Positions 902 to 44,112 of a DNA stretch of 61,529 bases are shown piece after piece. The stretch lies in the IMG/VR virus record IMGVR_UViG_3300030098_003632, positions 1 through 61,529 of that record; one strand, written 5' to 3'. Position numbers and translations under genes: made by a program. Numbering within the stretch: position 1 is the stretch's first letter; each line of letters begins with the position of its first letter. The stretch is from a virus. Lineage: Duplodnaviria; Caudoviricetes. Under the pieces are notes generated by a model. That model was not told the origin of the DNA and ran no database searches. It worked only from the letters and a program-made list of their open reading frames with translations.

Positions 902-3900
902 ATGAGTGACGATTTAACAGCAAGAAGGCTACAGGCTGAGGCAAAGTTAGACTCAGCTAGAATGAAGGCTCTGTATGTAGGTCAGATAATGATCTACGAA
1001 GAAATGCTGCGCATGAACACGGCTTTTGCGCTGAGTGAATCTACTGCAGAAGGATTGAAGCCTAATAGCCCTGAGAATGCTAAGCGACTGCTGAATTTAA
1101 TTAGTCCAGAATTCCCTCCAGAAAGAAATGTTGGAGGCGCTAAGGTAAGAATAGGCAAAACTGATGACTTACCTATCTACGACACAAGAAACGTAGATGC
1201 AAAGGTCGATGGCAGGCTCACTAGGCTAAGGTCTAAGGCGGGTGTGCCTGGCGATCAGAGCGCATATTATCTAGCCACAGAAGATAGCCTCAAACGGTAT
1301 GTAGAATCTCTTGAGGAAACTCTTTCTCAAGTAGATGTTTCAGGGGCACAACAAACAACCCGCAAGGGTCGCCGCGTCACAAATCGCTATGCCACGCCTG
1401 CTAATCTACCGGCTGAAGTAATCTATCAGGCAATCCTTGACCCGCGTGTTGGCTTGGATATGGTCAGGGAAGGGAAGAACCTTGCAGCACAAGCCACTCG
1501 TGTTAGAAAGCAAGGCAATCTTGCCCAAGCGAATGAACTGGAATCTTCATCACAGTCACTGATAGACCTTGGAACTCAGATACTCGACTTGCGTGGCTAT
1601 GCAAGCCTAGCAGAAGGTGCGCCAGCACAGATAGGGACTGAAGAGTTTGAAGGCCTAGGGGTTGGAACAGAAAGAGATATTGAACTTGGTCTGTTTGTAG
1701 AGAAAGACATTGAAAAGGACATAGATGGCAATTATTACAAAGCAGGAGAAACGAGCAATCCTCAGGGAGCTGGCCGAGCAAGGCGAGTAATAAAGCCTAA
1801 CAATTACGAGTTCCAAGGATTCTTTAATGGGATAAATTCCCTAACAGACTACGAAACATTTAATTTTGACACGGCAGAATCCCAAGGGGCTCTAGAAGGG
1901 GTCGATCCTTTAGCAGCAGGGGATGCACAGTTTGCCCTGAATACTGCTGTGAATAATTATTTTGGTACTGACATTGCGACTGCAGTCGAGATGGCAAACC
2001 AGATGAGATATTGGGAGCTTAAGGAAGAAGGCAGAATCTCTAAAGATATGACCTTCCAGCAATGGATTAATCTTCCTAATGACGTTCCTTTTGATATTCA
2101 GCCATTCAGCACAAGTATGCAGGGTGTGAAGCAGATGTTGCTGAATGACGAAAGTTTCGTTCAGGAATATGATACGTTTGAAAACTTCTTAGAGCAGCAG
2201 GGCGTTACTGCAGATTTTGAAGCCCAAAAAGATATTACACCAGAGACTATTGAGCGAATTGCAATCGAGCGAATTCGACAGTCTTTAAGTCGTGGTAATA
2301 TCCAGCGAATGATTCAAAACGCCTCAGTCAGCATGAAAAATCCAACTGGGGAGTACGCCACTCTAAAGGCAGTCAAGAGGGCAGGGCCAGTAGACCCAAT
2401 GGGGAATCAGACGGAAGTTGAGATAGGCACCTTCCGGGATGTAATCAACGCAGCAAGGAGAAAGTATTTTGTTGACGAGGGAAGTCAGCTCGATGTCACA
2501 GATTCTGAAGTTACTGATGCAGCAAACCGCCTTAAAGAACTCGGCGTATTTGATGTAGGGCTTGGGGAGTCAACGGTTACACGCAGGCAGGTTAGCCCAC
2601 TTAGCAAGGACGGGACAGAGCTTCTTAAGACTATATATCGCCAAAAAAGAATAAATAAAATTGAGACCAGGGATGATGTCAGCAAGTTACTTACTGCTGT
2701 AGAAGCCGAGCTCTCAGGGCCACAACGTAAAGCCTTAAAGGCAGAATTAAAAAACTTCTCCCAGGAAGTGATAAATGCTCTCAGGGTAATTGTTTCTGCC
2801 TATCGAACAGACAAATCGTCTAAAGGCCTGAAAGCCTCCAGTCTTTCAGGGAAGGAAAAGACCGCCTTAAGTAGGATTGCTGGACAGTATAAGCATGAGA
2901 ATCAGGTTAGCATCCGCAGTACCACGGCTTCTGAGCAAGTCACAAAGAACCTAAAGAGAATTGAAAAGGGAGTCGCCAAGGAAGAAAGCAAGGCAAGGTA
3001 TAAGCCAACTCGACCCCAACTTCCACCCACTACTACTGCAGAGGCGCAGACTTTATTCGATTCCTTAAGGCGATTACAAAGCCAAGAGCAAGAAATCATT
3101 AACAGGCTAAACGCTCTTGAAGATACCCCTGAAACAAAGAAAGAAAGAAAGGCTTTAGTTGACCAAAAGAGACTGCTATCAAAGCAGATAAAGTCTCGGG
3201 CAGGAGAAATCAAAAAAACGGCAACAGGGATAGCTCAGAGGACTGGTGCCGGAGTCCTCCCCACCCCTAAAGCAGCTACCGGAGTAGAGCCTACTAGAGA
3301 CCCAACAAAATTGCGCACTCCAGGGCAGTCAGTCGCAAGGCAGAGAGACCAGACTGGAGAAAGAGCTGAAGTCATTGACGGAAGACTTGCTATCGTGCAA
3401 GATGTTGAGGCTGCGCAGGCAAGAGGACAGGAACCTATAATAGCAGAAGGGCATGACCTTCAAATGCTTGAGGTAACGGCTGCCGAAAAAGCCCGGAAAA
3501 CACAAGAGTGGAGAAAGGAAATTGGCAAGCGCACCACTCAGGAACAGTCCATTAGAAATATTCTTGATACGACTGACCTTGACAGTTGGGACGTTGCTTT
3601 AGAAGAACGTGAAGCACAAGAAGCACTTAAAGAAGTTGAAAGAGGACAAGTTGGCAGCAGGACTCCTAGCTGGGATCCAGAAATAGCTCCCAATGAACCT
3701 CTACGGATTGTAGATGGCAAAGTGGTTCCTTTCGACCGCATAGTAGAAATAAGGGGAAGCAGAACTTCTCCTTACGAAGGCTTGTCTGTGATTATTAGTT
3801 CTGAAGCAGGCTTTGGAATTAACCAAGCGAAGATGGCTGGCTTTACTGAGCCAGGAGTAGACACTGGAGGTTTCAGTGGCGGCGATCAGTTAGCAGGATT

Positions 3901-6900
3901 CTACGGTGCAAGTCAAATTACAACAGAGACTAGGAATGAATTCCTAGAGGCAAATCCTTCACGCAGAAATGCCTCTGATAGAGACATAGCACAATGGTCA
4001 AACGCTGGAATTGCAGAAGCCACTCTTTCTTTAGGCGGGGGTAATCCAACTGCAATCGCAAACGCCAGTAATCATGTACCTAACAATAGTCCTGAGCAGG
4101 CAGCTCAGTATATTATCGACCACAATATTAAAGTCCTTAATATTGATGAAGCAAGAGACATATCTGAAGGCATTAGCAATAAAGGGGAGCAAGCCGAGCT
4201 ATTCCTCAGTGAAATGTTTGGCATACTTGAGCAACGAGGCGCATTAAATCCTCTCACTAGACAGGGCGGGGACGCATGGACAGATGCAACTAAACAGAGA
4301 ACGATCGGTCGTCCTGTTCACAGGCTCGGCACAGTCGAAGTCAACATAGATGGCGTAGAGCAAAATGAATTTAAGGCGTTAAGTCCAAATGCCAAGTCAA
4401 GCATCGAAGTTGCTGTAGTATTTAGGCCTGCTGGAAAAGAACTTAAGCAAAAGAGTGTTCGGTTTACGAGCATGGCTAAAGCATTGACTTGGCTGACAGA
4501 GCAAGAGGCAACCACCAATGCTGACGGATTTGAAATTGATAACGAGCAGGCATTCGACCGCCTTGTTGATGGGTCTATTGCAGGTACCACTAACCCAGTC
4601 CCTGAAAACTTCAGTCAGGATGTATTAAATAATCTTATTAGAATCCAGGTCAGCAATGACACTGATTACCAAGGCGCCCTAAATGCAGCTGGCGACAGAC
4701 TAATTGTCTTTACTCACGACAAACGAGAACCTTCTTTCGGTGAAGTTGGATTTGCAAGCCCAAATAAATTCGCAACGGCGTTGGATCAGGCCGTTGAAGA
4801 AGGTAGGACATATGGCCAAGAGTTGGAAATACTAGAAGCACCGTCATCTGCGGGAACTGTATTTGAGACACAGCTAGAGGTTCCAGAGATTCCAATCCCG
4901 GCTGTGCAAGGGCCAGAGCAGAGGAAAAACCTCGACTCCATACGAAGAGGTAACATCGCAGCGCGTTTCTCCATAGACAGAAAAACAGTACCGAATTTAG
5001 TTCCCGGTATGGTGTTTAGGTTTGAAGGGACAGGAAGAGACTCAATCCTTGTCGTTGAAAATGTTAGTGCTGAGACAGGCAGCGTCGTAATAAGACCAGC
5101 TACTTCCGAAGAAAAAGTAAACATACAACGTGCACGAAGAACACTAAAGCCAATATCAGAACAGAATCTACACAGTGGCCCAGAACAAAGAGCTCTAAAG
5201 CGTGCTGCTGAACTTGAAGCAGATCCTAATGTTGAAGTCATCAGCCAAACTAAAGTCTCCCAAGAACAGAAAACCTTGTGGCAGCTGGTTAAAGAGAATG
5301 CAAAGAAAGGTAATGTTGGAGAGGCTTTCAGAAGAATTAAGTCAGCCTTAAGTTCTACTAAGTACACGCCAGAGCAGCAGGCAGCCTTCAGAAAATATAA
5401 TATCGACCAGCTTACAATCCCAGAACTCCAGACAGCACTGGCAGCTTATAGGGATAACGTGGAGATGACTCCAGAAAACAGAGAAGTCGTCGATTCTATT
5501 ATCAACCAGCCCACTATAACGCAAAGAGCCTCGACTAATGCAAAGGCTCTGCTTGCAAGTCTAGATGATTTCACCGAAGGAAGCACAAAAGAAAAAATTA
5601 TTGATGCCCTGGAGACATTCCGCAAAGCTAGTGCGGAAGGCTCTCAAAAATTCTTAGGGCTCTTTGGTCGTGCCCAGAATATTGACGATGAAGTATCTAG
5701 CCTTAGTGAAAGTCAGTGGAATGTTGTTGCCAAGTATGCACAAAATGCCGACCTTAATGCAAAGCAACGCCAAGGATTAAGGCAAGTCGCTGACTGGCTA
5801 GGTGGAAGAACTAGTAAGCCAAAGCCGCAAGTGCTAAGAAGCGTTCTTGATATTCCATATAACGATATTCCAGGCAACAGAAAGACAGCCTTCCTTAACG
5901 ACATGGAGAACGCCGTCCATGTTACTCCGCAGAAGGTAATAGCCATTCCTATTAGGCCAGGAATTGGTTCAACCACATACAAAGTCAAAGGAGTTGGACA
6001 ACCTCCTCGTACTGTTGACATTCCTAAGGGCAGGTCTGCTCAAGCACAGACTTATTTACAGTCCCTGTTTCCTGACGATGATATTTATTTCACGCAGCCT
6101 GTCGGTAGTGAGCGAGAAGCTAACGATCAGATGCAGACTATCACTCAGATGCAAGCTCAGGCAGTTGCACCTGCAGGTACAGACCCAGTGTCTCCGGGTA
6201 GCGCAGAGCCAGTAGCTCCTCAACCAACTAGCCCAATAGCTAAGAGTCAAACACGGTCAGTAGCACCTGCGCCTACACAGACTGTAGGACAGCCAGCGGC
6301 TACTCCCCAAGCTACAGTTATTAAGTCTGCTCAAGGCGAAATTCCAGTAGGTGGAACTCCAACAGAAAATGTTATCCGAAACCTAATGGGCGGACAAGAA
6401 ATTGAACCAGGTAGTCCTATACAAACTATCCGAGATCAACTGAATACTGTTAACAGAGATGGAGAATATAGTCCTGAACAGGTGGAAGAAGCGTTTCAGG
6501 CTGCTCGATACGCACAAAACACCGGACAGGAACACGATGCGGTTGTAGATGCCTTCTGGCAAACCATCGACGAAAGTGCTCCTGATGTAGAGCTAGTGGA
6601 AACAGAGACAGGAGCATCTGTGCCACGGAATACTGGAAGAGGGCCCTTTGGCCAGGGCAGGGATTATGTCAAACCACTCCGCCGCCCTGAAGACATGACT
6701 GGTCAAACTGAGCCTGATCCACAAGATACTACACAAACAACCACCGATACCACTGCCGCTAAAACCTACCCAATTCCAGGGTCAGGATCAGCGACAGGGG
6801 CAGAGATGTTTGTTGACGATGAATTCCAGCCAAACACAAATGTATATGAAGATGATAAAGTCTTCTTCCCAACAGGTGGCATACCGCAGGCATCCGCTGG

Positions 6901-8950
6901 TGGATATCCAGCAACTGGCATGGACGAGGAAGGAACTGTTGACCAGCAAGCAGAGAAAGCAAAAGAGCTGGAAAAAGCTGGTGGCAAACGCGGCATAATA
7001 AGAACTGCCGCTGGCATTTATAAGCAGGCAGTTCCCGGAGTTGGTCTTGGTGATGCGGGCGCTCTTTATACTGGCGGTTATATCGAACGATGGAATAAGC
7101 TATTTCCTGATTGGGCTGAGGGCAAGAGAGATATTAATTTAGCTGACATTCAGCCAGATGATGGTAGTAGACCTGAATTCTCAGATGTCGTTGGCGTTCT
7201 TCGTATGGGTAATCATATCGACGATGAGCAGGCTGGATGGCTAGTTAAAATGGAAGGCCTTATTAAGAGAGATCTAGAACTAGGAAAATTCCCTGCTGCT
7301 AAACAGCATCCATATTGGGGTCATATTCGTGCGAAGTTACACGACTGGTCAGCACCAGAAGTTGAAGATGGCCCACGAAAATTCTATCTTTGGGAAGATC
7401 TTGATCTTAACGATGCTAATGTTCGGGAAGGTGCAATAGCACAGGCTCGAACCTTAGATGTTACCGGAAGAACTTTAGGAAGAAAGTACGATCCAGCTTC
7501 CTATCTTGAAGGAAAGCATTTATGGATGGTTCCGGGCTGGACAGATTTCACTAAGCACGCTGTAAGCGGTGAGAGATTTTACGATTCACTCCAATCCTCC
7601 CTGCTGTATGCAACAAAAGGAGGAGCGATTAGGAAGGGAACACAGTTATTTAGAAAGTTAAGAGGAGTTGCAAAGGCAGCTAAAGGGCTTAAGGGCTTTG
7701 GTGGAAAAGTGGTTGGTGGCACCGGATCAGCTCTCGGTACGATTATGCAAGGTGCTCACCAGTTATCGTACTGGATGGAGGATGCTGCACTAGCATTCGA
7801 TGGAGCCGCAGGATCTCAAACATTCAGAGAGGCTGCTGGAGTTCGTCCTCTTAAGATTGAGAATAAAGCAGTTGAATTCAGGCAAAGGCCAGAAGCCTAT
7901 ATACAGGCAAAGCAGTTTATTGAAAACAACACAGACACAAACGGTAATTTTTCAAGCGAAGAACGTGCAACTCAGTTCCAAAACCTTCTTTATGATGGGG
8001 TTCCATACTCTGATGTCATGGTCTGGGATCTCCACCACACACACAGAGACGGAGAGAATGAGGGAACTCCTCTGCCTCAGCAAGACAAGTTTATCCAGAA
8101 TAGGTTCACGGGAACAAGAATACCTTTGTCTCGAATAGAGCAAATGTATATCCATAACTATGAAGATAAGTGGCTCAATTTCTCAGCTCAATTAACTGGC
8201 CTTCGTTCGATTAAAGCTCTCCAGAAAGTAGATAGAAGAGGAGAAGAAACCGGAGAACAGATATTAACAAATGCAGAACTATCTGAAGCTGAAGCTGCAC
8301 TAAGATCCCTGCCTTCATTTACCCAAGATGAGTTAGAAGGCTGGAGTATAGGCACACCTAGAAGAACTGCTTGGACAAGTCCTCCTGTTAGCCGCCCCGT
8401 CACGCCACCAGCCGGCAGCTGGGGTTCAGCAACTGAGTTCGTTCAGAACTGGCAGGAAGAAATGGTTGGCGGTGGTATTAGAGATGCCTTTGGGAACCTG
8501 CTTGGCGACTGGGACTTCATGGGAGACTGGGGAACTGGCGCCAAAGAAGGGATTGATCGAGGCCAGCTTGGTGATGGGTTAGGCGGGGAATTAACTTCAA
8601 GATCAATTACATACTATCCACGACATAAGAACCAAAGATCCAGAGCTTCCTTGGCTCCAGCCGCAAATGTTGGAGAGCAGCTTGGGGGAGCAGTATCTAC
8701 CGTAGTCAATCCTATAGCTAGGGAATTAGGTTTCTCTGGTTTTGGGTACCACTCAGCAGAAGATATGTCTCATGTGGATATTAAACAAAACATAGCGGAG
8801 CTACCTGAAAGTCCTTCGTTTCTCTATCCTGACTATTCTAGGGAAGAAGCCGAGCAAAGATCTTGGATGTACAGGAATTCAGGTGGTTTAATACAATCAA
8901 ACTATATGCTTCCAAGTCAGTTAGCACCTCCTCCAGAATGGGGACAATAA
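902..8950 (+). CDS. Giant internal virion/ejection protein, polyvalent-like, with degenerate SLOG(cpYpsA)-, NADAR- and ASCH-like segments
   Basis: 2682-aa ORF downstream of the tail genes, where podoviruses keep ejection proteins; motif remnants at about 3775-5110. Confidence 0.6.
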   Translation: MSDDLTARRLQAEAKLDSARMKALYVGQIMIYEEMLRMNTAFALSESTAEGLKPNSPENAKRLLNLISPEFPPERNVGGAKVRIGKTDDLPIYDTRNVDAKVDGRLTRLRSKAGVPGDQSAYYLATEDSLKRYVESLEETLSQVDVSGAQQTTRKGRRVTNRYATPANLPAEVIYQAILDPRVGLDMVREGKNLAAQATRVRKQGNLAQANELESSSQSLIDLGTQILDLRGYASLAEGAPAQIGTEEFEGLGVGTERDIELGLFVEKDIEKDIDGNYYKAGETSNPQGAGRARRVIKPNNYEFQGFFNGINSLTDYETFNFDTAESQGALEGVDPLAAGDAQFALNTAVNNYFGTDIATAVEMANQMRYWELKEEGRISKDMTFQQWINLPNDVPFDIQPFSTSMQGVKQMLLNDESFVQEYDTFENFLEQQGVTADFEAQKDITPETIERIAIERIRQSLSRGNIQRMIQNASVSMKNPTGEYATLKAVKRAGPVDPMGNQTEVEIGTFRDVINAARRKYFVDEGSQLDVTDSEVTDAANRLKELGVFDVGLGESTVTRRQVSPLSKDGTELLKTIYRQKRINKIETRDDVSKLLTAVEAELSGPQRKALKAELKNFSQEVINALRVIVSAYRTDKSSKGLKASSLSGKEKTALSRIAGQYKHENQVSIRSTTASEQVTKNLKRIEKGVAKEESKARYKPTRPQLPPTTTAEAQTLFDSLRRLQSQEQEIINRLNALEDTPETKKERKALVDQKRLLSKQIKSRAGEIKKTATGIAQRTGAGVLPTPKAATGVEPTRDPTKLRTPGQSVARQRDQTGERAEVIDGRLAIVQDVEAAQARGQEPIIAEGHDLQMLEVTAAEKARKTQEWRKEIGKRTTQEQSIRNILDTTDLDSWDVALEEREAQEALKEVERGQVGSRTPSWDPEIAPNEPLRIVDGKVVPFDRIVEIRGSRTSPYEGLSVIISSEAGFGINQAKMAGFTEPGVDTGGFSGGDQLAGFYGASQITTETRNEFLEANPSRRNASDRDIAQWSNAGIAEATLSLGGGNPTAIANASNHVPNNSPEQAAQYIIDHNIKVLNIDEARDISEGISNKGEQAELFLSEMFGILEQRGALNPLTRQGGDAWTDATKQRTIGRPVHRLGTVEVNIDGVEQNEFKALSPNAKSSIEVAVVFRPAGKELKQKSVRFTSMAKALTWLTEQEATTNADGFEIDNEQAFDRLVDGSIAGTTNPVPENFSQDVLNNLIRIQVSNDTDYQGALNAAGDRLIVFTHDKREPSFGEVGFASPNKFATALDQAVEEGRTYGQELEILEAPSSAGTVFETQLEVPEIPIPAVQGPEQRKNLDSIRRGNIAARFSIDRKTVPNLVPGMVFRFEGTGRDSILVVENVSAETGSVVIRPATSEEKVNIQRARRTLKPISEQNLHSGPEQRALKRAAELEADPNVEVISQTKVSQEQKTLWQLVKENAKKGNVGEAFRRIKSALSSTKYTPEQQAAFRKYNIDQLTIPELQTALAAYRDNVEMTPENREVVDSIINQPTITQRASTNAKALLASLDDFTEGSTKEKIIDALETFRKASAEGSQKFLGLFGRAQNIDDEVSSLSESQWNVVAKYAQNADLNAKQRQGLRQVADWLGGRTSKPKPQVLRSVLDIPYNDIPGNRKTAFLNDMENAVHVTPQKVIAIPIRPGIGSTTYKVKGVGQPPRTVDIPKGRSAQAQTYLQSLFPDDDIYFTQPVGSEREANDQMQTITQMQAQAVAPAGTDPVSPGSAEPVAPQPTSPIAKSQTRSVAPAPTQTVGQPAATPQATVIKSAQGEIPVGGTPTENVIRNLMGGQEIEPGSPIQTIRDQLNTVNRDGEYSPEQVEEAFQAARYAQNTGQEHDAVVDAFWQTIDESAPDVELVETETGASVPRNTGRGPFGQGRDYVKPLRRPEDMTGQTEPDPQDTTQTTTDTTAAKTYPIPGSGSATGAEMFVDDEFQPNTNVYEDDKVFFPTGGIPQASAGGYPATGMDEEGTVDQQAEKAKELEKAGGKRGIIRTAAGIYKQAVPGVGLGDAGALYTGGYIERWNKLFPDWAEGKRDINLADIQPDDGSRPEFSDVVGVLRMGNHIDDEQAGWLVKMEGLIKRDLELGKFPAAKQHPYWGHIRAKLHDWSAPEVEDGPRKFYLWEDLDLNDANVREGAIAQARTLDVTGRTLGRKYDPASYLEGKHLWMVPGWTDFTKHAVSGERFYDSLQSSLLYATKGGAIRKGTQLFRKLRGVAKAAKGLKGFGGKVVGGTGSALGTIMQGAHQLSYWMEDAALAFDGAAGSQTFREAAGVRPLKIENKAVEFRQRPEAYIQAKQFIENNTDTNGNFSSEERATQFQNLLYDGVPYSDVMVWDLHHTHRDGENEGTPLPQQDKFIQNRFTGTRIPLSRIEQMYIHNYEDKWLNFSAQLTGLRSIKALQKVDRRGEETGEQILTNAELSEAEAALRSLPSFTQDELEGWSIGTPRRTAWTSPPVSRPVTPPAGSWGSATEFVQNWQEEMVGGGIRDAFGNLLGDWDFMGDWGTGAKEGIDRGQLGDGLGGELTSRSITYYPRHKNQRSRASLAPAANVGEQLGGAVSTVVNPIARELGFSGFGYHSAEDMSHVDIKQNIAELPESPSFLYPDYSREEAEQRSWMYRNSGGLIQSNYMLPSQLAPPPEWGQ

Positions 8951-16547: not shown

Positions 16548-16936
16548 CGGGGATGTCCTTCCGACTTTAGTTCTTTGAAATGAGGTAATATGTCTCCGAC
16601 TGTCACTCTTCTCGGTGCCCTCAGCTCGGGGTCTTTAAGTTTCAACCATCCTTCTATCTCGAAGTTGTTAGTGTCGTAGATTATTTTATATGCTAGTTGC
16701 CTGGCATGTGGCATGGCAGCTAGGTCATCCATATGGCATTTCTTGCACGCGCAGAAATAATTATTTAGGTTTGCCCAGGCGTGATGCGGTGCTTGGCTTT
16801 TGCGTTCCATCTCATGAGTCTCTAGCGGAAACCCTGCATGATGCTTTGCTCCGCACACCCAGCAGAATTTTTTATCTTTAGCCCACTCTTTCCTGGCTGC
16901 CATTAAAGAATTAATTTCCCTTGCAGTCTTCTTCAT
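16538..16936 (-). CDS. Zn-binding HNH-like protein
   Basis: CWVC...HE...N...CKKCH pattern. Confidence 0.55.
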   Translation of the reverse strand: MKKTAREINSLMAARKEWAKDKKFCWVCGAKHHAGFPLETHEMERKSQAPHHAWANLNNYFCACKKCHMDDLAAMPHARQLAYKIIYDTNNFEIEGWLKLKDPELRAPRRVTVGDILPHFKELKSEGHPRWK

Positions 16937-18567
16937 CTTCGCTTCCTCTCTTTCCGTATGGCATTTAGTAACCAGCTTGCTGCTATATATGGCTTCCCTT
17001 TAAGGCAGGTGTCTAAATACCAAGTAGGCAGATCCTCTACTAGCTTACCTTTGAACTTCCCAAAGATCATCCTTGCTCCTCTCTTCTTCTTGTGAACTCC
17101 CCCTTGAGCAGCACCTCTGAATGGATCAATATTTAATTTCTTGTACCTGGCTTCCGCCTCGATTAAAATTCTGCGTTGCCTTTCAGCCTCCTCGCGTGCT
17201 TCTCTTACTGCGCGCTTAGCTTCCTCAACTGCTTCGTCTAGCTCGACAGCTTCCTGGCTTTCAAGAATTAATTCTTTTGCTTTCTCAATCTCTTCAATCC
17301 CTATTGTCCCACTCATTACATCAGGAGATGTAACTATTTTATGAGCTAAGGAAGAATCGACCAAGTCTATCATTCTAAAGTAAGGCTTGTCGCTGAAAGC
17401 TATCGAAGCCTGCCTAGATTCAGCAGTGCTATTATCGAAGTCAACCACGCCACGCAAAGGCCTAGTACCACGCCCAAAGATTTGAGTGTATAAGGCACGG
17501 CTTTTGGTGGGTCTAGCCATGACAATGTTTCGTAGGTCAGGAAAGTCCCACCCAGTAGTAAGAATACCCACATTGCAGACGTGAGTAAGACCGTCAGGAT
17601 CTTCTTGAAAAGATCGCATAACCTCTCGTCTACGCTGGGGTGTACACTTTGATGTATCACTGGCGATCCAGTCTGCTGGGATTCCGTATGAATCAACGAG
17701 TCGTTCTGCGACGAGCTTTGCTTCTTGAACAGAGGAGCAGTAGACCACGGTCTTTTCTCCTCGGGTTTCTCTGGCTGTGACATCTGCTATCTCCATGATT
17801 GTTTCTGAATCTTCGAGCAAAGAATTTAATTCTTTCTGGTTAAAGTCTTTGCCCATTACTGTATTAGTTGTGCTTACATCTTTTAGGTCTAGTGATTCAA
17901 GCTGTACGCAATGAGTCTTAGCGGGTACTAACCATCCTCCTTTAACAGCATCCGCTATTCCATATTGATAGACACACTTATCGTATATATTTAACATCGC
18001 TTTCTGGTCATGGCGTTTAGCCGTTGCTGTTACACCTAGCACCTTAGCCCCATCGTTACGATAGAAGTCCAACATCTCTTTCCACTTGGGCGTTATGGAT
18101 AAGTGAGCTTCGTCTACTACGACTAAGCCTACGTCCCTAATCCTTTCGTACCTTGGTGGAGTTCTAGATGTCAGACTATCTTTAGAAGCAACTACATACT
18201 TGCTCCTCCCCCAAGGGGTTTCGATACTCCAGTTCTTTGCTTGCTCTATTCCTGGCTGCTCTCCTGTTCTTAAAAATATTTTCTTTGCTGCCTGGCTAAT
18301 CAACTCGACATAGGGGGCGATGACTAAGCATCGCCCGTTCTCCCATGTCTTAAGTAGCTGAGTAAATATTTCTGTCTTCCCTAGCCCAGTGGCTAACTCC
18401 ACTAAGACAGATTCCTTGTCTACGAAAGCATCTTCAATAGCCTCCCTTGCTTCCGCTTGATAAGGTCGTTCCTTAAAATAATTTATGTGCCCCGAGATTC
18501 CTTGGCTGCGCGGCTGAGGAACCCTGTCCCATAGCAGTGGTTGCATCCGGTCTTGTTTCCTAGGCAT
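16933..18567 (-). CDS. Superfamily 2 DEAD/DEAH-box helicase with C-terminal FGK(F/Y)KG (DUF3820-like) motif
   Basis: RPYQ Q-motif, ATGLGKT, DEAH, TAT, LTTGWDFP, QIFGRGTR. Start uncertain (18567 or 18546). Confidence 0.92.
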   Translation of the reverse strand: MPRKQDRMQPLLWDRVPQPRSQGISGHINYFKERPYQAEAREAIEDAFVDKESVLVELATGLGKTEIFTQLLKTWENGRCLVIAPYVELISQAAKKIFLRTGEQPGIEQAKNWSIETPWGRSKYVVASKDSLTSRTPPRYERIRDVGLVVVDEAHLSITPKWKEMLDFYRNDGAKVLGVTATAKRHDQKAMLNIYDKCVYQYGIADAVKGGWLVPAKTHCVQLESLDLKDVSTTNTVMGKDFNQKELNSLLEDSETIMEIADVTARETRGEKTVVYCSSVQEAKLVAERLVDSYGIPADWIASDTSKCTPQRRREVMRSFQEDPDGLTHVCNVGILTTGWDFPDLRNIVMARPTKSRALYTQIFGRGTRPLRGVVDFDNSTAESRQASIAFSDKPYFRMIDLVDSSLAHKIVTSPDVMSGTIGIEEIEKAKELILESQEAVELDEAVEEAKRAVREAREEAERQRRILIEAEARYKKLNIDPFRGAAQGGVHKKKRGARMIFGKFKGKLVEDLPTWYLDTCLKGKPYIAASWLLNAIRKERKRR

Positions 18568-19298: not shown

Positions 19299-19494
19299 CG
19301 CTTCCTCCGTTGTCGTATAAGACTTTCTGGCGAACAAAATAAAGTTTCCTAGCCAGGTCTAATGTTTCTGAGTTCATGTTCATTGTTTTGAATCCTTTAC
19401 CATACTCTTGAAGAGCATCCAAGTCACGAGCCTCCAGTAAGGAGGCCGTGATAACATGGATGTGGTGAAGGTTGATTCTAGGTTCATCCTTCAT
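19279..19494 (-). CDS. Hypothetical protein
   Basis: 71-aa ORF overlapping both neighbours in the operon. Confidence 0.55.
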   Translation of the reverse strand: MKDEPRINLHHIHVITASLLEARDLDALQEYGKGFKTMNMNSETLDLARKLYFVRQKVLYDNGGSDDHFKD

Positions 19495-20101
19495 TTAGTA
19501 GTTCGTCCCTTCGTTTGATGGTGACATCATTGATCTTCATCAAGTCGTCGTCAGACCAATTAGCTTCTTTGTAGGTAATAACTTTTTCGTGGTTGGCATC
19601 AAGGTCTTCTAAAGTAGAGCTTTTTATAGACATGATTGCTCTAGTTAGTATTGCCTCGCTGCTTCCACGCTTATTAACTTCAGCATCAGGATCATCGCCT
19701 GTCTCTATCAAGAAGAACTCACGCAGTGCATACTTCTTAGCTAAAGTCATAGCCTTTGATGCACGCTTGTCCCCTTGGTCAGAAGCCTCAGCAAAAGTCT
19801 CAACAAACGCTTGGTCACCAGATTCAACATGTTCAAAACAGAACCTCCTCTTACCTAAGAACAACGACATTCGGTGTCCCTTACTAGTTGTATAGTCTTC
19901 AGTCTTAACTACTTCGCATACGTCTGGATACATAACGATCCCGTGCTTGACCATTGCTGGCCGTAGCTGTGCGATTAGTTCCTTCTCTCCGGCATAGGTG
20001 TATCCGTAGTTACCCGAACCTACCTTGCCTTTCTTCTGCACATAACCTATCTCTTTCATGACAGCTATTTGTGCAGCCCTAAGTGATTCGTGCTTAGCCA
20101 T
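19484..20101 (-). CDS. ERF-family single-strand annealing protein
   Basis: IGYVQKKG...YTY...LRPAMVKHGI; DQGDKRASKAMTLAKKYALREFFLIETGDDPD. Confidence 0.85.
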   Translation of the reverse strand: MAKHESLRAAQIAVMKEIGYVQKKGKVGSGNYGYTYAGEKELIAQLRPAMVKHGIVMYPDVCEVVKTEDYTTSKGHRMSLFLGKRRFCFEHVESGDQAFVETFAEASDQGDKRASKAMTLAKKYALREFFLIETGDDPDAEVNKRGSSEAILTRAIMSIKSSTLEDLDANHEKVITYKEANWSDDDLMKINDVTIKRRDELLNEG

Positions 20102-20339
20102 TGGTCATCTCCTCCCGTATCTTTTTATTTTCTTCTAGTAATGGAGAGCCTTCCATGATAATGACTTCGGGATTCTGGTCGATGTCATATCGAGGGGTGT
20201 AGTTTTTATGCTCACCCGGCTGGCTCTTAATATATATGTGGCAATAACCCTGTTCGTTAATAATAATCCCGAACTCAACGCCAAGTTTATCTGTGCCTGG
20301 CTGCTTGGTTTTAACAATAATTTCTTTTCTAGTTATCAT
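20094..20339 (-). CDS. Hypothetical protein
   Basis: Fills the gap between the exonuclease and ERF genes; likely start ATG 20339. Confidence 0.55.
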   Translation of the reverse strand: MITRKEIIVKTKQPGTDKLGVEFGIIINEQGYCHIYIKSQPGEHKNYTPRYDIDQNPEVIIMEGSPLLEENKKIREEMTNG

Positions 20340-21165
20340 TTTCGACAACATCCTCCATGTTAATGATTTGACCCCAGCCATCCGAGTGCCACTGATCCAT
20401 GTCATGACACCACTTAATTCTGTCGATGGTCTGGTAGTTAATTAGTCTCGCCTGTCCTATGAATGTCTCAGGTATTTCAAATACCATTGATTCAAAAGGC
20501 GGGAAGTTTCTTATAGCTACAATTAAAAATCTCTTACATTCAAACACATCGCAGTAGTGTGCAGCTTGGTATTGATAGCCGAACTTCCACAGTGCGTCTT
20601 TAATAAATTCACTTCCTAAATGCTGGCGTGTTGTCTTGAAGTCTATGATTATGTCTTCGTCTGAAAAGTCAGCGTCACACATAGCCTTACACTTCATGCC
20701 ATTTACTAGATTTGTAGCAACAACCTCGGATCTTTTTTTGGTTAGCCTTTCCATCCATGGTTTAATTGCTGGGTTGTCCCTGACGGAATCTCTCATTTGT
20801 ATGACAGCTTCCATCTCGTTAGGGCTTAGATGTATTTTGTTTTCATTTAGCTCTTGCCATCCGAGGATAAATTCTCTATGAGCCTTAAGCCTTCTGTTTA
20901 GTTTCTCTGGCTGGTGTCCACCTAGATCTATATACTCTGGCATAACTGCGATGACATCCTCGATTAGTACATCAGGGCATACAATAGCATGTAGTGCTGA
21001 GCCTATACGCATTGCATCGCTTGCTTTGGGTGGCTCTAGTTCTTTAGCTACATACTGGTGATAGTATGTCCATGCACCCTTGCTTGAGAAATCTTTTATG
21101 GCTGTCCTAGATAAGAACGGTAGCTTGAAGTAGTTGTCTTGAGATATGTCCAGTATCTTTTTCAT
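20329..21165 (-). CDS. PD-(D/E)XK exonuclease, RecE/exonuclease VIII-like (DUF3799 type)
   Basis: AMRIGSALHA; CKAMCD; IIDFKTT; YQYQAAHY; near ERF. Confidence 0.85.
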   Translation of the reverse strand: MKKILDISQDNYFKLPFLSRTAIKDFSSKGAWTYYHQYVAKELEPPKASDAMRIGSALHAIVCPDVLIEDVIAVMPEYIDLGGHQPEKLNRRLKAHREFILGWQELNENKIHLSPNEMEAVIQMRDSVRDNPAIKPWMERLTKKRSEVVATNLVNGMKCKAMCDADFSDEDIIIDFKTTRQHLGSEFIKDALWKFGYQYQAAHYCDVFECKRFLIVAIRNFPPFESMVFEIPETFIGQARLINYQTIDRIKWCHDMDQWHSDGWGQIINMEDVVENDN

Positions 21166-23673: not shown

Positions 23674-24453
23674 TTATTTATCACCTAATCTCCTTCGCCT
23701 GTTGTCAGTATTAGCTATCTTCTTTGTTTTCTTTTTGGCTTCATCTATTATTGTGAAGCCATCTTTTTGTCCAGCAAATCCAGGGAATCCATCAAGGCCA
23801 GCTTGATATGCTACTCTTGTATTGGTTTGATTCCATCTATGTCCATTATATCGAGTGCCTTTTTTCTGCATTCTTCTGACCGCTTCTGACCAGCTAATAC
23901 CTTCTGCATCTTTCCATTCTATTAATTCCAAAACTAATCTCCTCTCTTTATCATCCGGCACAAAGTGCGATTGCCCTTCTGATCTTATTATTTTGTAGCC
24001 AATGGGTGAGCACCCGTTCTTTGGACGACCATTGGTTACTCTTTCCTTAATGCGTTCAGACTTTATGGCACTGTCGAATTTCACCCATGTCTTGCATGAG
24101 TCGTACATTAGTTCTCCCATCTCACTCTCTAGTTCATAGCCTAGCTCTATCACATTAAAAATTATTTTTCTATCCAGGAGCTCATCAATTAATTCAACGG
24201 CCTGCTGTATACTAATGAATGCACGATCCAATGTTAGAGAAATAATAACATCTCCTGAGGCAGCCATGTCTAGCATGTCAGAACCAAGTGGACGCTCGGA
24301 CATATGCACACTGCCCCAGGGGATGTCGTCTATAAAATATTTATCTACATGTTTTCCATATACTCTTTCACACCAGGCCTCAATGGAATTTTTTTGTTCT
24401 TCCACTGAGTAACCCGGTGTGTTCGAGTCTCTTATGTAACCTAGTATTCTCAT
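23674..24453 (-). CDS. Serine recombinase (resolvase/invertase family)
   Basis: ILGYIRDS...SVEEQ; ERP; GDVIISLTLDRAF; IKSERIKE; PIGYK. Confidence 0.78.
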   Translation of the reverse strand: MRILGYIRDSNTPGYSVEEQKNSIEAWCERVYGKHVDKYFIDDIPWGSVHMSERPLGSDMLDMAASGDVIISLTLDRAFISIQQAVELIDELLDRKIIFNVIELGYELESEMGELMYDSCKTWVKFDSAIKSERIKERVTNGRPKNGCSPIGYKIIRSEGQSHFVPDDKERRLVLELIEWKDAEGISWSEAVRRMQKKGTRYNGHRWNQTNTRVAYQAGLDGFPGFAGQKDGFTIIDEAKKKTKKIANTDNRRRRLGDK

Positions 24454-25183: not shown

Positions 25184-26857
25184 TTATTTTATGACTATAG
25201 TGTGAATCCAATCTGGGACTGGATAGTAATCTCTAAGTTCTCTGGTTAGTACGGCTATTACAGGCATATCCATACTGTCTTCAGGCCAAGGTGTTTCCCC
25301 ATCCGTGAAGGCGAGTATTACATCGGGCTTGGATTGACGTTGTTCAAGTGATTCTGTAATCATTAAGCCAACGTCAGTTCCTCCTCCCCCTTTGACCTCT
25401 ATTTCATTAAAGCTCTTGGAAAGTTTTGTTGAGTGCTTAAACTCAGTATCTCCCATATATAAATCTAATTTTGTCCTTGAGTCGAAGTGATTAAATATAT
25501 TTTTAATCGCCCCTTTACATTTGGCAAAGTCTTCATCATCCATAGAGGCAGATGTATCTAGACATATTAATATGTCTGGCTTATAGCCTTCTCTTGATGG
25601 GAGCTTTATACCTGTAACGTCCGATCTTCTGTTGAATCTCCTGTATGTTCTTCTGTTTCCGTTAGAAGAACGTTCAGCAAATCTTTTGACAACTCTAAGA
25701 ATCTTTTGGTAAGGATCAGTCCTTACCGGCACGATTGTTTCTGCCCAACTAACCATATCTCCCCCGACATTGCTTCGGTTCTTATGGATTTGTTTGGCAA
25801 GATCTTCAATTACATAATCAATCTGATCTTGATTTAAGCCCAGGCCACCCTCGTCTGGGTCGGGTAGCACTGAGCTTAGATCTATTTGTATACTTCCTGC
25901 TCCGGGTTTTCCTGGATTGGGCCCATCCCACCGGAGTTCTCCATATTCATTGATGCTAATTGATTCGTCATCTGAAAGTGCATCTGTCGAAGGTGCTCGT
26001 CCATCGTCCTCATCGCTGCTTCTGTCCCGCTGTTGATCGACATTATCTGCATCGTTATTGTGTCCACTGCTCCCTTCAGTTGGTTCAGTTCCGCTTGAAG
26101 ATTCTGGACTATCTCCGTAGTGTTCATCAAGTTGGTCACTGTTGTCCTCAGTTCCCCCACTTTCTCCGCTAAATCCGATTCCAGATTCTCGAATCGCTCC
26201 CTCGTTGGCTTGTTGATTATTGCTCGTGGCATCGTCATTCTCCTTTAACCTTCTATAGTTTAGTTCTACTGGTAGATTCTTCTCGACTATGTGGATGAAC
26301 TCTTCGTCCCACCACTTCAAGTAGTCTGTAGTTATTACTACGCGACTCTTGTCGCTGTAGCTATATATCCTATCGGGACTTACTACAGGTAGTTCCCTTG
26401 CAAGTATGTCATTAACACATAAGTCTGCAGCTATATTCCATAGGTGCATTTGCTTTCGTGTTACTTCTTTACCTACTTCTTTCTCTAATCTTCTGTGATG
26501 GTTGTTGGTTAGGTGCAATAGCTCATGTAATATCACACCAGCTATCATCTCTTCCTTGTTGTCCTTTACAAACTTAGGATCGTAGGCCAACCTCCAATGC
26601 TTATCAACTCCCATTGTTCCTAAGCCATGTACTGGCACAGGTTTCATGGAAAAGATTGCATTCCTACTAAACTTCCAATGTCGTGCAGCTCTTAGCATTG
26701 CTTTACGCAAACTGTTGTCTTCACGGAATGTTATTCTACTGCCTGGCACTCTGCTTTTCAATGAGTTAGTCATGATAATATCCCTTAAAGTCCCTATTAT
26801 TTCCCTTTCGGGGTGCATAGACACACTCCATGCACCCCTCAGGGTACCGTTAGTCAT
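25184..26857 (-). CDS. HExxH metallopeptidase-like plus vWA protein (DUF2201 type), partner of MoxR
   Basis: ILHELLH, WNIAADLCVN; acidic linker; MIDAS motifs DTSASM, GGGTD, FTDG. Confidence 0.88.
   Translation of the reverse strand: MTNGTLRGAWSVSMHPEREIIGTLRDIIMTNSLKSRVPGSRITFREDNSLRKAMLRAARHWKFSRNAIFSMKPVPVHGLGTMGVDKHWRLAYDPKFVKDNKEEMIAGVILHELLHLTNNHHRRLEKEVGKEVTRKQMHLWNIAADLCVNDILARELPVVSPDRIYSYSDKSRVVITTDYLKWWDEEFIHIVEKNLPVELNYRRLKENDDATSNNQQANEGAIRESGIGFSGESGGTEDNSDQLDEHYGDSPESSSGTEPTEGSSGHNNDADNVDQQRDRSSDEDDGRAPSTDALSDDESISINEYGELRWDGPNPGKPGAGSIQIDLSSVLPDPDEGGLGLNQDQIDYVIEDLAKQIHKNRSNVGGDMVSWAETIVPVRTDPYQKILRVVKRFAERSSNGNRRTYRRFNRRSDVTGIKLPSREGYKPDILICLDTSASMDDEDFAKCKGAIKNIFNHFDSRTKLDLYMGDTEFKHSTKLSKSFNEIEVKGGGGTDVGLMITESLEQRQSKPDVILAFTDGETPWPEDSMDMPVIAVLTRELRDYYPVPDWIHTIVIK
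25882..26232 (-). CDS. Overprinted coiled-coil protein nested out of frame in the vWA gene
   Basis: AAGGAG 7 nt before ATG 26232; 116 codons with heptad pattern; coincides with the acidic linker of the host gene. Confidence 0.55.
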   Translation of the reverse strand: MPRAIINKPTRERFENLESDLAEKVGELRTTVTNLMNTTEIVQNLQAELNQLKGAVDTITMQIMSINSGTEAAMRTMDEHLRQMHFQMTNQLASMNMENSGGMGPIQENPEQEVYK

Positions 26858-27971
26858 TCAATCTAGATTCTTCCATCTCCCTAAGCTCTTGGTTAGCTTC
26901 AGGTACATACCCATCTGGCTTCATGTCCCATAGTTTAGCTTCAAGATTCCTTGCTAGGTCTGGGTATGTTCTGTAAACATTCCCCAAGAACTTTCTACCT
27001 GCCTCCCAACGTTCTTCCGTCAGGTTGTCACGCACTCTTCTGAGTACAGACTTGGCATAACTCATAGCTATTGGGAATTCCTCGGGTATTTCTACCTCTT
27101 GGGGATCCTTAAGGAGATCTTCTGGGTCAACAAAGTTCGTAACTTTAAGGAACTCATTGAACTCTGATCCAACATGTTCCCCTACGAATCCTTGTATTAT
27201 TCTAAGGGTAACTTCAGGTGAGGCTCCAACTGAGATTGCACCCCCAAGGGCATAAGATAAGTTAGTCCATGACCTTGGTGTAGGGAATGGATTACCTTTG
27301 GTATCCTCATCGTTCTCCATGCAGGCATACTCCTCCTTGGCGTATGTACTTTTGCCAAAGAGAAAGTCTACTATCTTCTTTGCGAAGAGTGGGGTAGACT
27401 CATGCCAGTCGTCCGGAACAACAGGTACTTCTGGTGCAGGGAAGTCAAACCCTCCTGATTCCATACCCTCTATCCATTTCTTGGTGTCCATCTTCCAGTC
27501 AACAATGCACATCCTATTAATCATAGGTTCTGCCAATGGATTTCCATTAGTGGCTTGATCCATCCTGTTACCTGCTGCAAACACCCAGCAATTTTCAGGT
27601 GGGTTATCCATCCATGTAAGTGCAGCTGCTTGGGTAGCCTCATTTACTGAGGTGAATTCATCAATTAACATGATTGAATTCTGCAGTCTGGCACGCACCA
27701 TTTCCTCCAGCTCAACCATCTTAATGACTTGGTGCACGTTACCTTTGATAACGATGTCCCTTTTGTCAGGATAACCTCCAACGTCTTCTGGTTGTCTGGC
27801 TGGTAAGGGTGTCCTAATCCAACGCCGTTCCCTAGCTTTCGCCAGGGTCTCTAAAGTTTTTGTTTTTCCTACTCCAGCTGGGCCGTATGCCATCGTTGGT
27901 ATGCCTACCTGGGGAGGAATTAAATATTCCCAGTTGATTTGGGATTCTCTTCTGGAATGATGCTTTGTCAT
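26850..27971 (-). CDS. MoxR-type AAA+ ATPase
   Basis: GPAGVGKT, IDEF, AAGN, NRM, PTPRSW; directly upstream of the vWA gene. Confidence 0.9.
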   Translation of the reverse strand: MTKHHSRRESQINWEYLIPPQVGIPTMAYGPAGVGKTKTLETLAKARERRWIRTPLPARQPEDVGGYPDKRDIVIKGNVHQVIKMVELEEMVRARLQNSIMLIDEFTSVNEATQAAALTWMDNPPENCWVFAAGNRMDQATNGNPLAEPMINRMCIVDWKMDTKKWIEGMESGGFDFPAPEVPVVPDDWHESTPLFAKKIVDFLFGKSTYAKEEYACMENDEDTKGNPFPTPRSWTNLSYALGGAISVGASPEVTLRIIQGFVGEHVGSEFNEFLKVTNFVDPEDLLKDPQEVEIPEEFPIAMSYAKSVLRRVRDNLTEERWEAGRKFLGNVYRTYPDLARNLEAKLWDMKPDGYVPEANQELREMEESRLND

Positions 27972-37935: not shown

Positions 37936-38109
37936 ATGAAGGATAGTAAATTAGCTAAGATATTCCTATTAACAGGTTCTGCGTGTTTTACCTCAGTTAC
38001 TGTTTACATGGGCATCTTAATGTGGAAGAGTTATGTATGGGCTCAGTGGCTCCATAGGTTACAAGATTCGTTGAATAGGTATGAGAGTGGCGCAGGCCCT
38101 TTAATATGA
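37936..38109 (+). CDS. Small single-TM protein (57 aa, not in ORF track)
   Basis: MKDSKLAKIFLLTGSACFTSVTVYMGILMW...; ATGA overlap with the dipeptidase gene. Confidence 0.55.
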   Translation: MKDSKLAKIFLLTGSACFTSVTVYMGILMWKSYVWAQWLHRLQDSLNRYESGAGPLI

Positions 38110-39362
38110 GAAGAGATCTTGATAAAATCAAATCTTACACAACGGTAGACTGGCATACACATCTTTCGTTGAAGTCGGCTCTGTTCCATAGAGACCTCTG
38201 CAAACATCATAGCAGGAGGATCTTTAGTCGTGGATTCTCCCCTCTAACAAGCAGAGCTGACTTCCCGAAGATGATACAGGGGGGATTGGATGTTTCCCTC
38301 TCTGTAGCTTACATCCCTGAAGTGGAATGGCAGGATGACATTCCACCCATCCGCTGGCTTAGGTGGCTAGCTCCTCGTGCATGGAAGCGAATTTTTGGCG
38401 CAGATTCGTATTACGAAGCAACCATTACTGCAATCCAAGATGTAGAGGAGCAGGCCGCTAAGCATAACATTGAAAACAGGGATCAGGATTGGTATCGACG
38501 CGTTGCTATCTGTAGATGTTACAGCGACGTAAAACAGGCAATCAGGGAAAAAGCCTTGGCTATCGTTCATGCTGTAGAAGGTGGCCATTCACTGCAGGGT
38601 GAGGTTTGCGGCAAAGAAGAAGATGATTTTAAGCATGCTCCCTACGAAGATGCCAAAAAAGAGGTGATGGCAAATCTATTAGACTTCAAGCAGAGAGGTG
38701 TGGCATACCTGACTCTTGCCCACTTCTACCCTAACATTGTAAGTAACCCTGTATTTCCTTACCCCGAATATACTTCTAAGTTTGCTAAGTGGCATCCGAT
38801 GCTTGGCAGATGGGACACCACTCAGGGCCTCACTCGCATCGGCATGGATGTTGTTGAAAGATGTTTTGATCTCGGTATTATCGTAGATTTGGCTCACTCG
38901 ACCCCAATGGCACGATCACAAGTATATGCTTTAGCTGAAGCGAACGATGCCGAGTGTCAGGTCATTGCTTCCCATACAGGTGCTTATGAAATTAAAAATG
39001 ATATGTACAACCTGGAAGATTGGGAGATTAAGTGGATAGCAGACAATGGCGGTGTAATCTCTACCATTTTGATGAACTATTGGCTGGTTCCCCACCACAC
39101 CTCCTTAGGTTTAGATCATGTTGCAAAAACAGTAGGCCATGTCAGAAAAGTCGGTGGCATAGAAGCCACAGCTATAGGGACTGATTTTGATGGCTTTACA
39201 GATCCTCCGGATGACGTAGAAGACATGAGTCAAATACAGAGAATTGCTGCTCGATTAGCCAGCGAAATGAAGTCGATTGGAGTCCCTAGATATTCAGACA
39301 AAGACCTTAAAGCGTTCCTTGGAGGAAACTCATTGCGAGTTTTATCTGAGGGATGGAAATAA
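38106..39362 (+). CDS. Membrane (renal) dipeptidase family, peptidase M19
   Basis: DWHTH, AVEGGH, YLTLAH, GLT..G..VVE...GIIVDLAH, IASH, IGTDFDG, FLGGNSLRV. Confidence 0.88.
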   Translation: MRRDLDKIKSYTTVDWHTHLSLKSALFHRDLCKHHSRRIFSRGFSPLTSRADFPKMIQGGLDVSLSVAYIPEVEWQDDIPPIRWLRWLAPRAWKRIFGADSYYEATITAIQDVEEQAAKHNIENRDQDWYRRVAICRCYSDVKQAIREKALAIVHAVEGGHSLQGEVCGKEEDDFKHAPYEDAKKEVMANLLDFKQRGVAYLTLAHFYPNIVSNPVFPYPEYTSKFAKWHPMLGRWDTTQGLTRIGMDVVERCFDLGIIVDLAHSTPMARSQVYALAEANDAECQVIASHTGAYEIKNDMYNLEDWEIKWIADNGGVISTILMNYWLVPHHTSLGLDHVAKTVGHVRKVGGIEATAIGTDFDGFTDPPDDVEDMSQIQRIAARLASEMKSIGVPRYSDKDLKAFLGGNSLRVLSEGWK

Positions 39363-43576: not shown

Positions 43577-44112
43577 TGGCAAAAAAAGCATGTACAACTT
43601 GTAGAGTAGAGTATCCCGTTACCAAGGAATTCTGGCATCGGGATAATTCTGCTCATGATGGATTTCGTTCCACCTGCAAGATGTGTAGAGCTGAAGAGGT
43701 TGAGAAGAACCGAAGGAAGAAACTGGATGATAGAGTTTCCAAGATAGAAGACGCTGGAATCGACTTGCTTGATAATATGAGCAAAGGCGGTTCCAGTGTT
43801 CCTCATATGGCGGAAACATTCCAGAAAATAATGGAAGCCTTTGGTGGCCCCGGTGGATTTTCACAGCAAGTCATGTCCACATTTTACAAAGCAGCTCCAG
43901 GAAGTTTGCAAAGGCAGAGGATCCTAGAAGCTGTGCTAAGATTAAATATTAAAGTTTCCGAGTCGGGTGCAGCACAGAAGTCACTTGAAGAGCTTACTAA
44001 TGAAGAGCTAGACAAAGAAATACAAGAGTCATTCCAGAGCTTCATAGACCCTGACATTAGCATCCTGCATAAAATAATACCTGCTGATGACAAACCCACA
44101 GAAAGCAAATGA
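43576..44112 (+). CDS. Putative terminase small subunit with N-terminal Zn finger
   Basis: Directly upstream of TerL; CTTC...CKMC; C-terminal LEELTNEEL. Confidence 0.5.
   Translation: MAKKACTTCRVEYPVTKEFWHRDNSAHDGFRSTCKMCRAEEVEKNRRKKLDDRVSKIEDAGIDLLDNMSKGGSSVPHMAETFQKIMEAFGGPGGFSQQVMSTFYKAAPGSLQRQRILEAVLRLNIKVSESGAAQKSLEELTNEELDKEIQESFQSFIDPDISILHKIIPADDKPTESK

Follow-up and report, generated by a model that had tools for sequence, protein, structure and literature searches.

A giant phage late-block protein carries a motif-depleted SLOG domain of the cpYpsA type beside a possible NADAR cassette

Viral SLOG domains belong mainly to the YpsA-like clade and frequently occur together with NADAR or Macro domains; the proteins that carry them are encoded among morphogenesis genes and have been proposed to be packaged in the head, according to Iyer, Burroughs, Anantharaman and Aravind (2022; PMC9503650). 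T4 gp30.3 is AdfN, a phage NADAR protein that counters DarTG1 by stripping ADP-ribose from DNA (PMC11825919), and the NADAR fold is described as an alpha-helical core between two small beta sheets (PMC11543638). The polyvalent proteins of Iyer et al. (2017; PMC5512222) provide a third point of comparison; a term search of the main text of that paper returned none of the words SLOG, YpsA, NADAR or ASCH. Here we analyze a complete IMG/VR virus record of 61,529 bases from an uncultured phage (IMGVR_UViG_3300030098_003632, hereafter the window) and, in particular, the 2682-residue product of its giant open reading frame (ORF), which we call P0001. An earlier note on this DNA had proposed that P0001 is a virion protein with three consecutive eroded domains: SLOG in segment (a), NADAR in segment (b) and ASCH in segment (c). 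Every string quoted in that proposal is found in ORF 902..8950, at aa 961-1374 (window 3782-5023; Table 1). Our analysis partly confirms the observation and partly supports its interpretation. We assign a probability of roughly 0.65 to the reading that P0001 is a polyvalent-type giant of the late block with a motif-depleted SLOG domain, a possible NADAR cassette and no ASCH domain.

Profile and pairwise comparisons show segment (a), aa ~958-1115, to be a true, very divergent descendant of the cpYpsA branch of SLOG, as the earlier note had suspected. The cpYpsA sets comprised 120 bacterial proteins and 80 viral domains from IMG/VR. Against the viral domains, hhalign gave a probability of 89% (P 2.3e-6, score 41.5). 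In 150 column shuffles, the mean score was 13.5 (standard deviation 2.7) and the maximum 23.3, and the reversed query scored 10.7. Among 41 windows along P0001, scores of at least 40.9 are confined to the three overlapping aa 1058-1111; the next best, at 18.3, is the collinear N-terminal part, in which aa 947-991 pair with family columns 1-45. A loose realignment keeps the segment collinear with the viral profile across 150 columns. The bacterial-only profile gave 56%, and an 11-row cpYpsA alignment (A2) gave 58.6% (P 9.6e-5). With HMMER filters off, the family scores 12.3 bits on aa 1053-1085, within an envelope of aa 970-1094; the curated PF12694 threshold of 26.2 bits is not reached, and there is no match at E <= 10.

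The pairwise alignments fall in the same register. For 25 of the 80 viral cpYpsA-bearing ORFs, a BLASTP high-scoring segment pair (HSP) aligns aa 950-1140 with the cpYpsA domain of that ORF, and L1079-N1080 pairs with the LN of the subject in 25/25 HSPs. Ten of the 25 span at least 107 aa, and the best has an E value of 2.7e-4 over 135 aa (L115). Against IAS virus gp055, the best alignment (E 0.001) lies within the Pfam-defined cpYpsA domain.

The signature loops of SLOG domains form the ligand pocket. In segment (a) these loops are degraded, a point on which the earlier note was also right. Among 200 cpYpsA family members, conservation reaches 85% or more in 35 columns, and the segment retains 14 of them. 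Where the family has SGGQTG[AV]D, segment (a) has SSEAGFGIN, in which S and G residues are retained and Q, T and D are gone; this part of the alignment, for which 'IIS' and 'V[DE]TGG' serve as anchors, is of low confidence. The central Y..RT..N[VA]RDSD.T motif keeps N and D, with R, T, S and T changed, in a MAFFT --add alignment that is uncertain at this point. In VLNIDEAR (aa 1078-1085), which corresponds to the family's [IV]LN[VI]AGxR, L, N and R are retained and AG has become DE. The landmarks that remain are the IIS strand, V-D-T-G-G, Y-G, G..T, P and I-K-V-L-N...R. By these alignments, three elements are missing from segment (a): the SGGQTGxD loop, the AG of LN[VI]AGxR and most of the RT..N..DSD.T motif. 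Because the glycine-rich loop and the other motifs are lost, segment (a) is most likely no longer the usual enzyme.

P0001 has few relatives. Among 5.8 billion clusters, we found only its own (P0002) and P0003, a protein of 2675 aa that is ~85% identical; filter-free HMMER over 1.84 billion representatives gave P0003 as the sole match. There was no match to P0001 in the phage collection by tblastn or in IMG/VR, and the PDB searched by sequence gave only 4p8b_A (E 0.55). P0001 and P0003 are 85.5% identical over the whole protein, 97.5% in segment (a), 50.7% in segment (b) and 95.9% in segment (c). Twelve full-length variants that are nearly identical to P0001 have an unbroken ORF, and segments (a)-(c) are invariant in the 13 variants that reach them (these 12 plus P0134). 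Since segment (a) is 97.5% identical to P0003 and invariant in the 13 variants, we consider it maintained rather than decaying. The alternative in the earlier note that it is a structural relic fits poorly, as the segment is conserved like the backbone and the ORF is intact in 12 variants. Most of P0001 matches segment (a) in conservation, and we infer that the segment probably persists in this conserved backbone because it binds a ligand or serves as a scaffold.

The backbone is interrupted by four islands of hypervariable sequence with sharp borders (aa 851-950, 1151-1300, 1901-2000 and 2501-2600), which are 30-64% identical to P0003 per 50-aa window, whereas the intervening backbone is mostly 90-100% identical. 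The islands look like the product of cassette swapping or diversifying selection, and segment (b), itself one of the four, is a fast-changing or swapped cassette.

To what extent this cassette resembles NADAR depends on the profile used. A first NADAR profile was built from 16 of 24 genome matches and E. coli YbiA, 80 viral NADAR domains were collected as well, the general profile comprised 97 sequences, and the gp30.3 profile was built from 6 proteins. The polyvalent-type profile drew on 39 of 57 loci, those matched over most of the query, which were deduplicated and joined by L070 and L072 to give 33 rows. As a positive control, we aligned the gp30.3 and NADAR profiles by hhalign, which gave 97.8%. 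Segment (b) gives 2.3% (P 0.021) with the general profile, 0.5% (P 0.13) with gp30.3 and 9% (P 0.0036) with the polyvalent type; a separate hhalign run gave 4.8%. It is the best of 39 windows for NADAR, with a score of 24.2-24.4. With the polyvalent-type profile, 1 of 100 shuffles did as well, and in another shuffle set 1 of 60 did. The P values range from 0.0036 to 0.13 by profile, and the curated PF08719 and PF08010 thresholds are not reached. In the ESM Atlas, whose ranking was not biased by the earlier idea, PF08010 (gp30.3) and PF08719 clusters come out on top at 0.78-0.80, a level that shuffled proteins often reach. By BLAST, matches of segment (b) to the NADAR database are barely better than matches to the unrelated cpYpsA database. 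The P0003 allele of the segment scores 28.9 bits against L232, where the maximum of 100 shuffles is 26.2.

The runner-up among the 39 windows, aa 1859-1884 (window 6476-6553; SPEQVEEAFQAARYAQ), scores 21.5 and resembles the 'VE.AYQ' helix of NADAR. This match is probably due to chance because low-complexity sequence follows it, and it shows how easily such motifs arise.

The glutamate of the (P)T(S)E(H) or VE.AYQ helix is invariant in three NADAR alignments (A3, A5 and A7). The corresponding position is A1192 in P0001 and a serine in P0003, acidic in neither protein in what is a low-confidence alignment, and segment (b), if it is a NADAR homologue, would lack the invariant Glu. In a weak alignment, H1272 stands opposite the TH/H seen in NADARs of the polyvalent and gp30.3 types. 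The AlphaFold model of segment (b) has two hairpins and five helices, with a predicted local distance difference test score (pLDDT) mostly below 50 outside aa ~1168-1220, and Foldseek on this low-confidence model returned no NADAR chain. Among the 80 viral cpYpsA loci from IMG/VR, 29 lie in ORFs of at least 800 aa; NADAR adjoins cpYpsA in three of these 29 giants, one of which, L072, has the two domains in the order proposed for P0001. Because of these three cases, the prior for NADAR in segment (b) is raised. We put the chance that segment (b) is a worn NADAR of the type that adjoins cpYpsA in other giant phage proteins a little short of even; the NADAR of the earlier note is a possible assignment.

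For segment (c), the ASCH assignment is unsupported by any test applied. The ASCH profile was built from 15 of 29 matches, full-length only and with L041 left out, and its members come from one phylum. Against it, hhalign gave 0.4% (P 0.14-0.15, score 12.9), and 9 of 60 shuffles did equally well. PF04266 does not match segment (c) at E <= 10, and the 80 viral ORFs that bear cpYpsA gave no ASCH match. At the invariant G.K of ASCH, RRGNIAARF has the G and an I at the K position, a pairing that comes without a significant alignment. AlphaFold predicts a helix followed by four strands (pLDDT ~44-63). The best Foldseek matches of this low-confidence model are assorted small barrels, among them the SlyD insert, PilZ and the RsmE N-terminal domain (all E >= 0.05).

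Several observations weigh against our preferred reading. None of the SLOG, NADAR and ASCH families of Pfam appears for P0001 or the three segments at E <= 10, and PF12694, PF08719, PF04266 and PF08010 match nothing in the genome at E <= 10; no threshold of a curated model is reached. The significant Viterbi match spans only the last third of the SLOG domain, its N-terminal two thirds rest on the low-confidence realignment and weak BLAST HSPs, and the loss of catalysis is read from motifs alone. The structure prediction that the earlier note had suggested yielded AlphaFold2 models, from two-row alignments, with mean pLDDT values of 41.1 and 43.8 (22-48 over segment (a) in the first), and Foldseek on the second of these returned nothing at E <= 0.001. 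The ESM Atlas places segment (a) at 0.78 with unnamed clusters, which is noise; since the segment is real and yet scores at noise level, the sensitivity of the ESM Atlas is low here. Because P0003 is the only diverged relative, there is no covariation signal and no ratio of nonsynonymous to synonymous substitution rates for P0001. Finally, most of the genes neighboring 902..8950 have no family.

The lack of curated-model matches, the poor AlphaFold models and the orphan status of the family are what would be seen if the resemblance were due to chance throughout and this region were simply a globular or spacer portion, unrelated to these domains, of a structural protein. For segment (a), this is opposed by the distance between 41.5 and the shuffle maximum of 23.3 (n=150), by the 25/25 HSPs in register and by the pairwise E of 0.001. 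We find chance throughout scarcely credible. Segment (a) could also be an active SLOG enzyme or a specific binder whose loops have been remodeled for a new ligand. It is 97.5% conserved between lineages that differ by 14.5% overall, the Gly-rich residues in SSEAGFG remain, along with the GG, LN and R, and SLOG clades span enzymes to non-catalytic sensors (PMC9503650). However, all residues have changed at the Q, T and D positions of SGGQTGxD and at the AG of LNVAGxR, where the 200 members show 98-100% conservation, and conservation says little about segment (a) in particular because it is common to most of P0001. Such neofunctionalization seems to us unlikely.

Taken in full, the reading of the earlier note is that all three segments are eroded, catalytically dead domains that may act as nucleotide-binding decoys or sponges. 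Its SLOG is confirmed by hhalign with controls, its NADAR is hinted at by the P0003 allele scoring above every shuffle, and an ASCH chain, 3iuw_A, does appear among the Foldseek barrels (rank 36, E 0.49, on the low-confidence model). But NADAR is not significant, with segment (b) matching the database of an unrelated family almost equally well, and ASCH fails by profile, by shuffling, by Pfam and by its occurrence in 0 of 80 viral ORFs. The claim that key residues are lost in all three domains holds for segment (a), the only one for which a systematic check was made. We judge the three-domain decoy very improbable. A narrower version, in which a packed, catalytically dead SLOG, possibly with a dead NADAR, would act upon entry as a ready-made sponge or sensor for immune signals of the cyclic ADP-ribose type or for ADP-ribosylated DNA, is also improbable. 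In that version the hypervariable cassette would track host defense variants, and the phage would, if this is true, deliver as an embedded domain what is otherwise known as a free sponge protein.

Returning to the motif-depleted SLOG reading, we propose that the 2682-aa gene would give rise to a polyvalent-type giant protein of the late (structural) block. Its SLOG domain, at ~958-1115, retains the landmarks of the fold and would serve as a non-catalytic ligand-binding or scaffold module. The next ~150 residues form a fast-changing or swapped cassette, perhaps a worn NADAR, followed by a beta-rich segment.

The genomic setting is consistent with this proposal. ORF 902..8950 lies within a tightly packed same-strand late block, which runs past the record ends to ~14 kb and also holds terminase, portal and virion structural genes (Table 1). 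The label of virion protein for P0001 follows from this placement of its gene in the late block and is thus positional; most likely, we infer, P0001 is packed in the particle and delivered with the DNA. No family was assigned to the entire protein, and nothing relevant to its sub-segments, by Pfam, PHROGs or NCBIfam, and the same three collections gave no MuF, peptidase, ADP-ribosyltransferase or other polyvalent hallmark domain in it. P0001 is charged and looks soluble. We also considered a membrane-inserting ejection protein and rejected the idea, as no hydrophobic 19-mer has a Kyte-Doolittle mean above 0.95.

Table 1. Features of P0001 and of the window, in residues of P0001 and positions of the window
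Feature	P0001 (aa)	Window	Strand	Remark
Giant ORF P0001	2682 aa	902..8950	+	Late block
Divergent cpYpsA-type SLOG domain, segment (a)	~958-1115	3773..4246	+	hhalign, BLASTP
LSVIISSEAGFGINQAKMAG	961-980	3782-3841	+	
SSEAGFGIN, in place of SGGQTG[AV]D	966-974	3797..3823	+	Family columns 98-100% conserved; [AV] 86%
GVDTGG	985-990	3854..3871	+	Fits phage-type [DI][VI]ETGG; GG pair retained
Core of significant profile match	1058-1111	4073..4234	+	hhalign; includes VLNIDEAR
QYIIDHNIKVLNIDEAR	1069-1085		+	
Hypervariable cassette, possible NADAR remnant, segment (b)	1156-1305	4367..4816	+	50.7% vs P0003; sharp borders, flanks 96-98%
EFKALSP	1156-1162		+	
RFTSMAKAL	1187-1195		+	
Best NADAR-like local match (SQDVLNN...ALNAAGDRLIVFTHDK)	1238-1274	4613..4723	+	Weak alignment
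LIRIQ...LIVF	1245-1270		+	
NKFATAL	1288-1294		+	
Claimed ASCH segment, segment (c)	1343-1404	4928..5113	+	Beta-rich, no assigned family
NLDSIRRGNIAARFS	1343-1357		+	
LVPGMVFRF	1366-1374	4997-5023	+	
DEAD/ResIII helicase		16933-18567	-	
ERF protein		19484-20101	-	
PDDEXK protein		20329-21165	-	
Resolvase-type serine recombinase		23674-24453	-	
Terminase large subunit		44087-45796	Same as giant ORF	Late block
P22-like portal		46213-48540	Same as giant ORF	Late block
PHROG 'virion structural protein', 902 aa		52016-54724	+	Late block

Elsewhere in the window, Pfam places a ubiquitin-E1 FCCH domain in the 902-aa 'virion structural protein', barely above the cut-off (E 1.4e-7). A homologue of M19 membrane dipeptidase at 38106-39362 (+; Pfam E 1.6e-47) is 41% identical to a gene from an Anaerolineaceae metagenome-assembled genome (L004) and may be a host-derived auxiliary gene. 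On the minus strand, at 25184-27971, an AAA ATPase adjoins a DUF2201 putative metallopeptidase + VWA protein, and the recombinase, PDDEXK, ERF and helicase genes of Table 1 lie further along that strand. The 12 full-length variants of P0001 (among P0124-P0138) are 99.5-100% identical to it and come from separate assemblies, with contigs of up to ~61 kb. The name given by the source to a fragment of the second lineage suggests ocean plankton. We therefore appear to be looking at a marine phage population that recurs and comprises two lineages.

Two further observations concern giant ORFs of other viruses. Residues 445-492 of P0001 (window 2234-2377) match aa 2417-2464 of L248, an IMG/VR ORF that carries a NADAR and is at least 2930 aa long. 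BLASTP gives 31% identity across these 48 aa, with an E value of 0.004 that comes from a small database, and the two stretches could represent a shared backbone element. For the polyvalent-type NADAR subtype, 35 of the 39 loci examined (of 57, L232-L288) lie in ORFs of at least 1599 aa, and many of these run off the 12-kb loci. This subtype seems to be largely confined to polyvalent giants.

Our results indicate that some SLOG domains in giant phage proteins have diverged beyond the reach of Pfam-level annotation, and therefore that surveys of viral counter-defense domains acting on ADP-ribose or NAD would undercount them. A SLOG domain that is depleted in motifs and yet conserved is also a candidate for testing function by binding rather than by catalysis. 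The general significance is modest, because the architecture is already in the literature.

The closest likeness is to the cpYpsA (PF12694) domains of giant phage ORFs (L072, L079 and L095) and of IAS virus gp055, annotated as 'molybdenum carrier', with which P0001 has collinear similarity across the domain. Common to P0001 and the phage cpYpsA domains are the V[DE]TGG and QxIxDxNIKxLN[VI] stretches. As in the giant ORFs, the domain lies ~1000 residues into a protein of 2700-3000 aa that is otherwise without known family; in three such giants, Pfam sees cpYpsA only, plus GNAT in one, and one of them (L095) is followed by a tail-fiber gene. Unlike the cpYpsA family, P0001 falls below every curated threshold and has lost the three motifs described above. 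Outside the domain, no similarity between P0001 and the giant cpYpsA ORFs was found, the remaining BLAST HSPs having E >= 0.018. In IAS virus (L063; NC_049978.1, crAss-like; 3230-8444), the 'molybdenum carrier' is a protein of 837 aa with cpYpsA at aa 268-415, and its gene immediately precedes that of the giant RNA polymerase, with an 11-base overlap.

With gp30.3-type NADARs, segment (b) shares the ESM Atlas ranking, in which gp30.3 clusters come first (0.79-0.80), and H1272, which in the weak alignment fits the His that replaces Glu in that clade. The two differ in that hhalign with the gp30.3 profile falls at P 0.13 and BLASTP against T4 gp30.3 gives E 5.8. With the SLOG and NADAR systems (with or without Macro and DUF4326) of PMC9503650, P0001 shares a YpsA-clade SLOG, a possible NADAR and a place in a morphogenesis block. 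The viral exemplars given there are typically standalone and are read as enzymes, whereas P0001 is a giant in which NADAR is not demonstrable. Like the polyvalent proteins, which have been proposed to enter the host with the DNA (PMC5512222), P0001 is a huge multi-segment protein encoded near virion genes, with mosaic, swappable sections that here take the form of four hypervariable islands. Polyvalent proteins combine several unrelated effector domains, whereas P0001 confidently has one, the SLOG domain. A SLOG domain, possibly with NADAR, in a giant late-block protein is thus an architecture that has already been described, of which P0001 is an unusually degenerate example.

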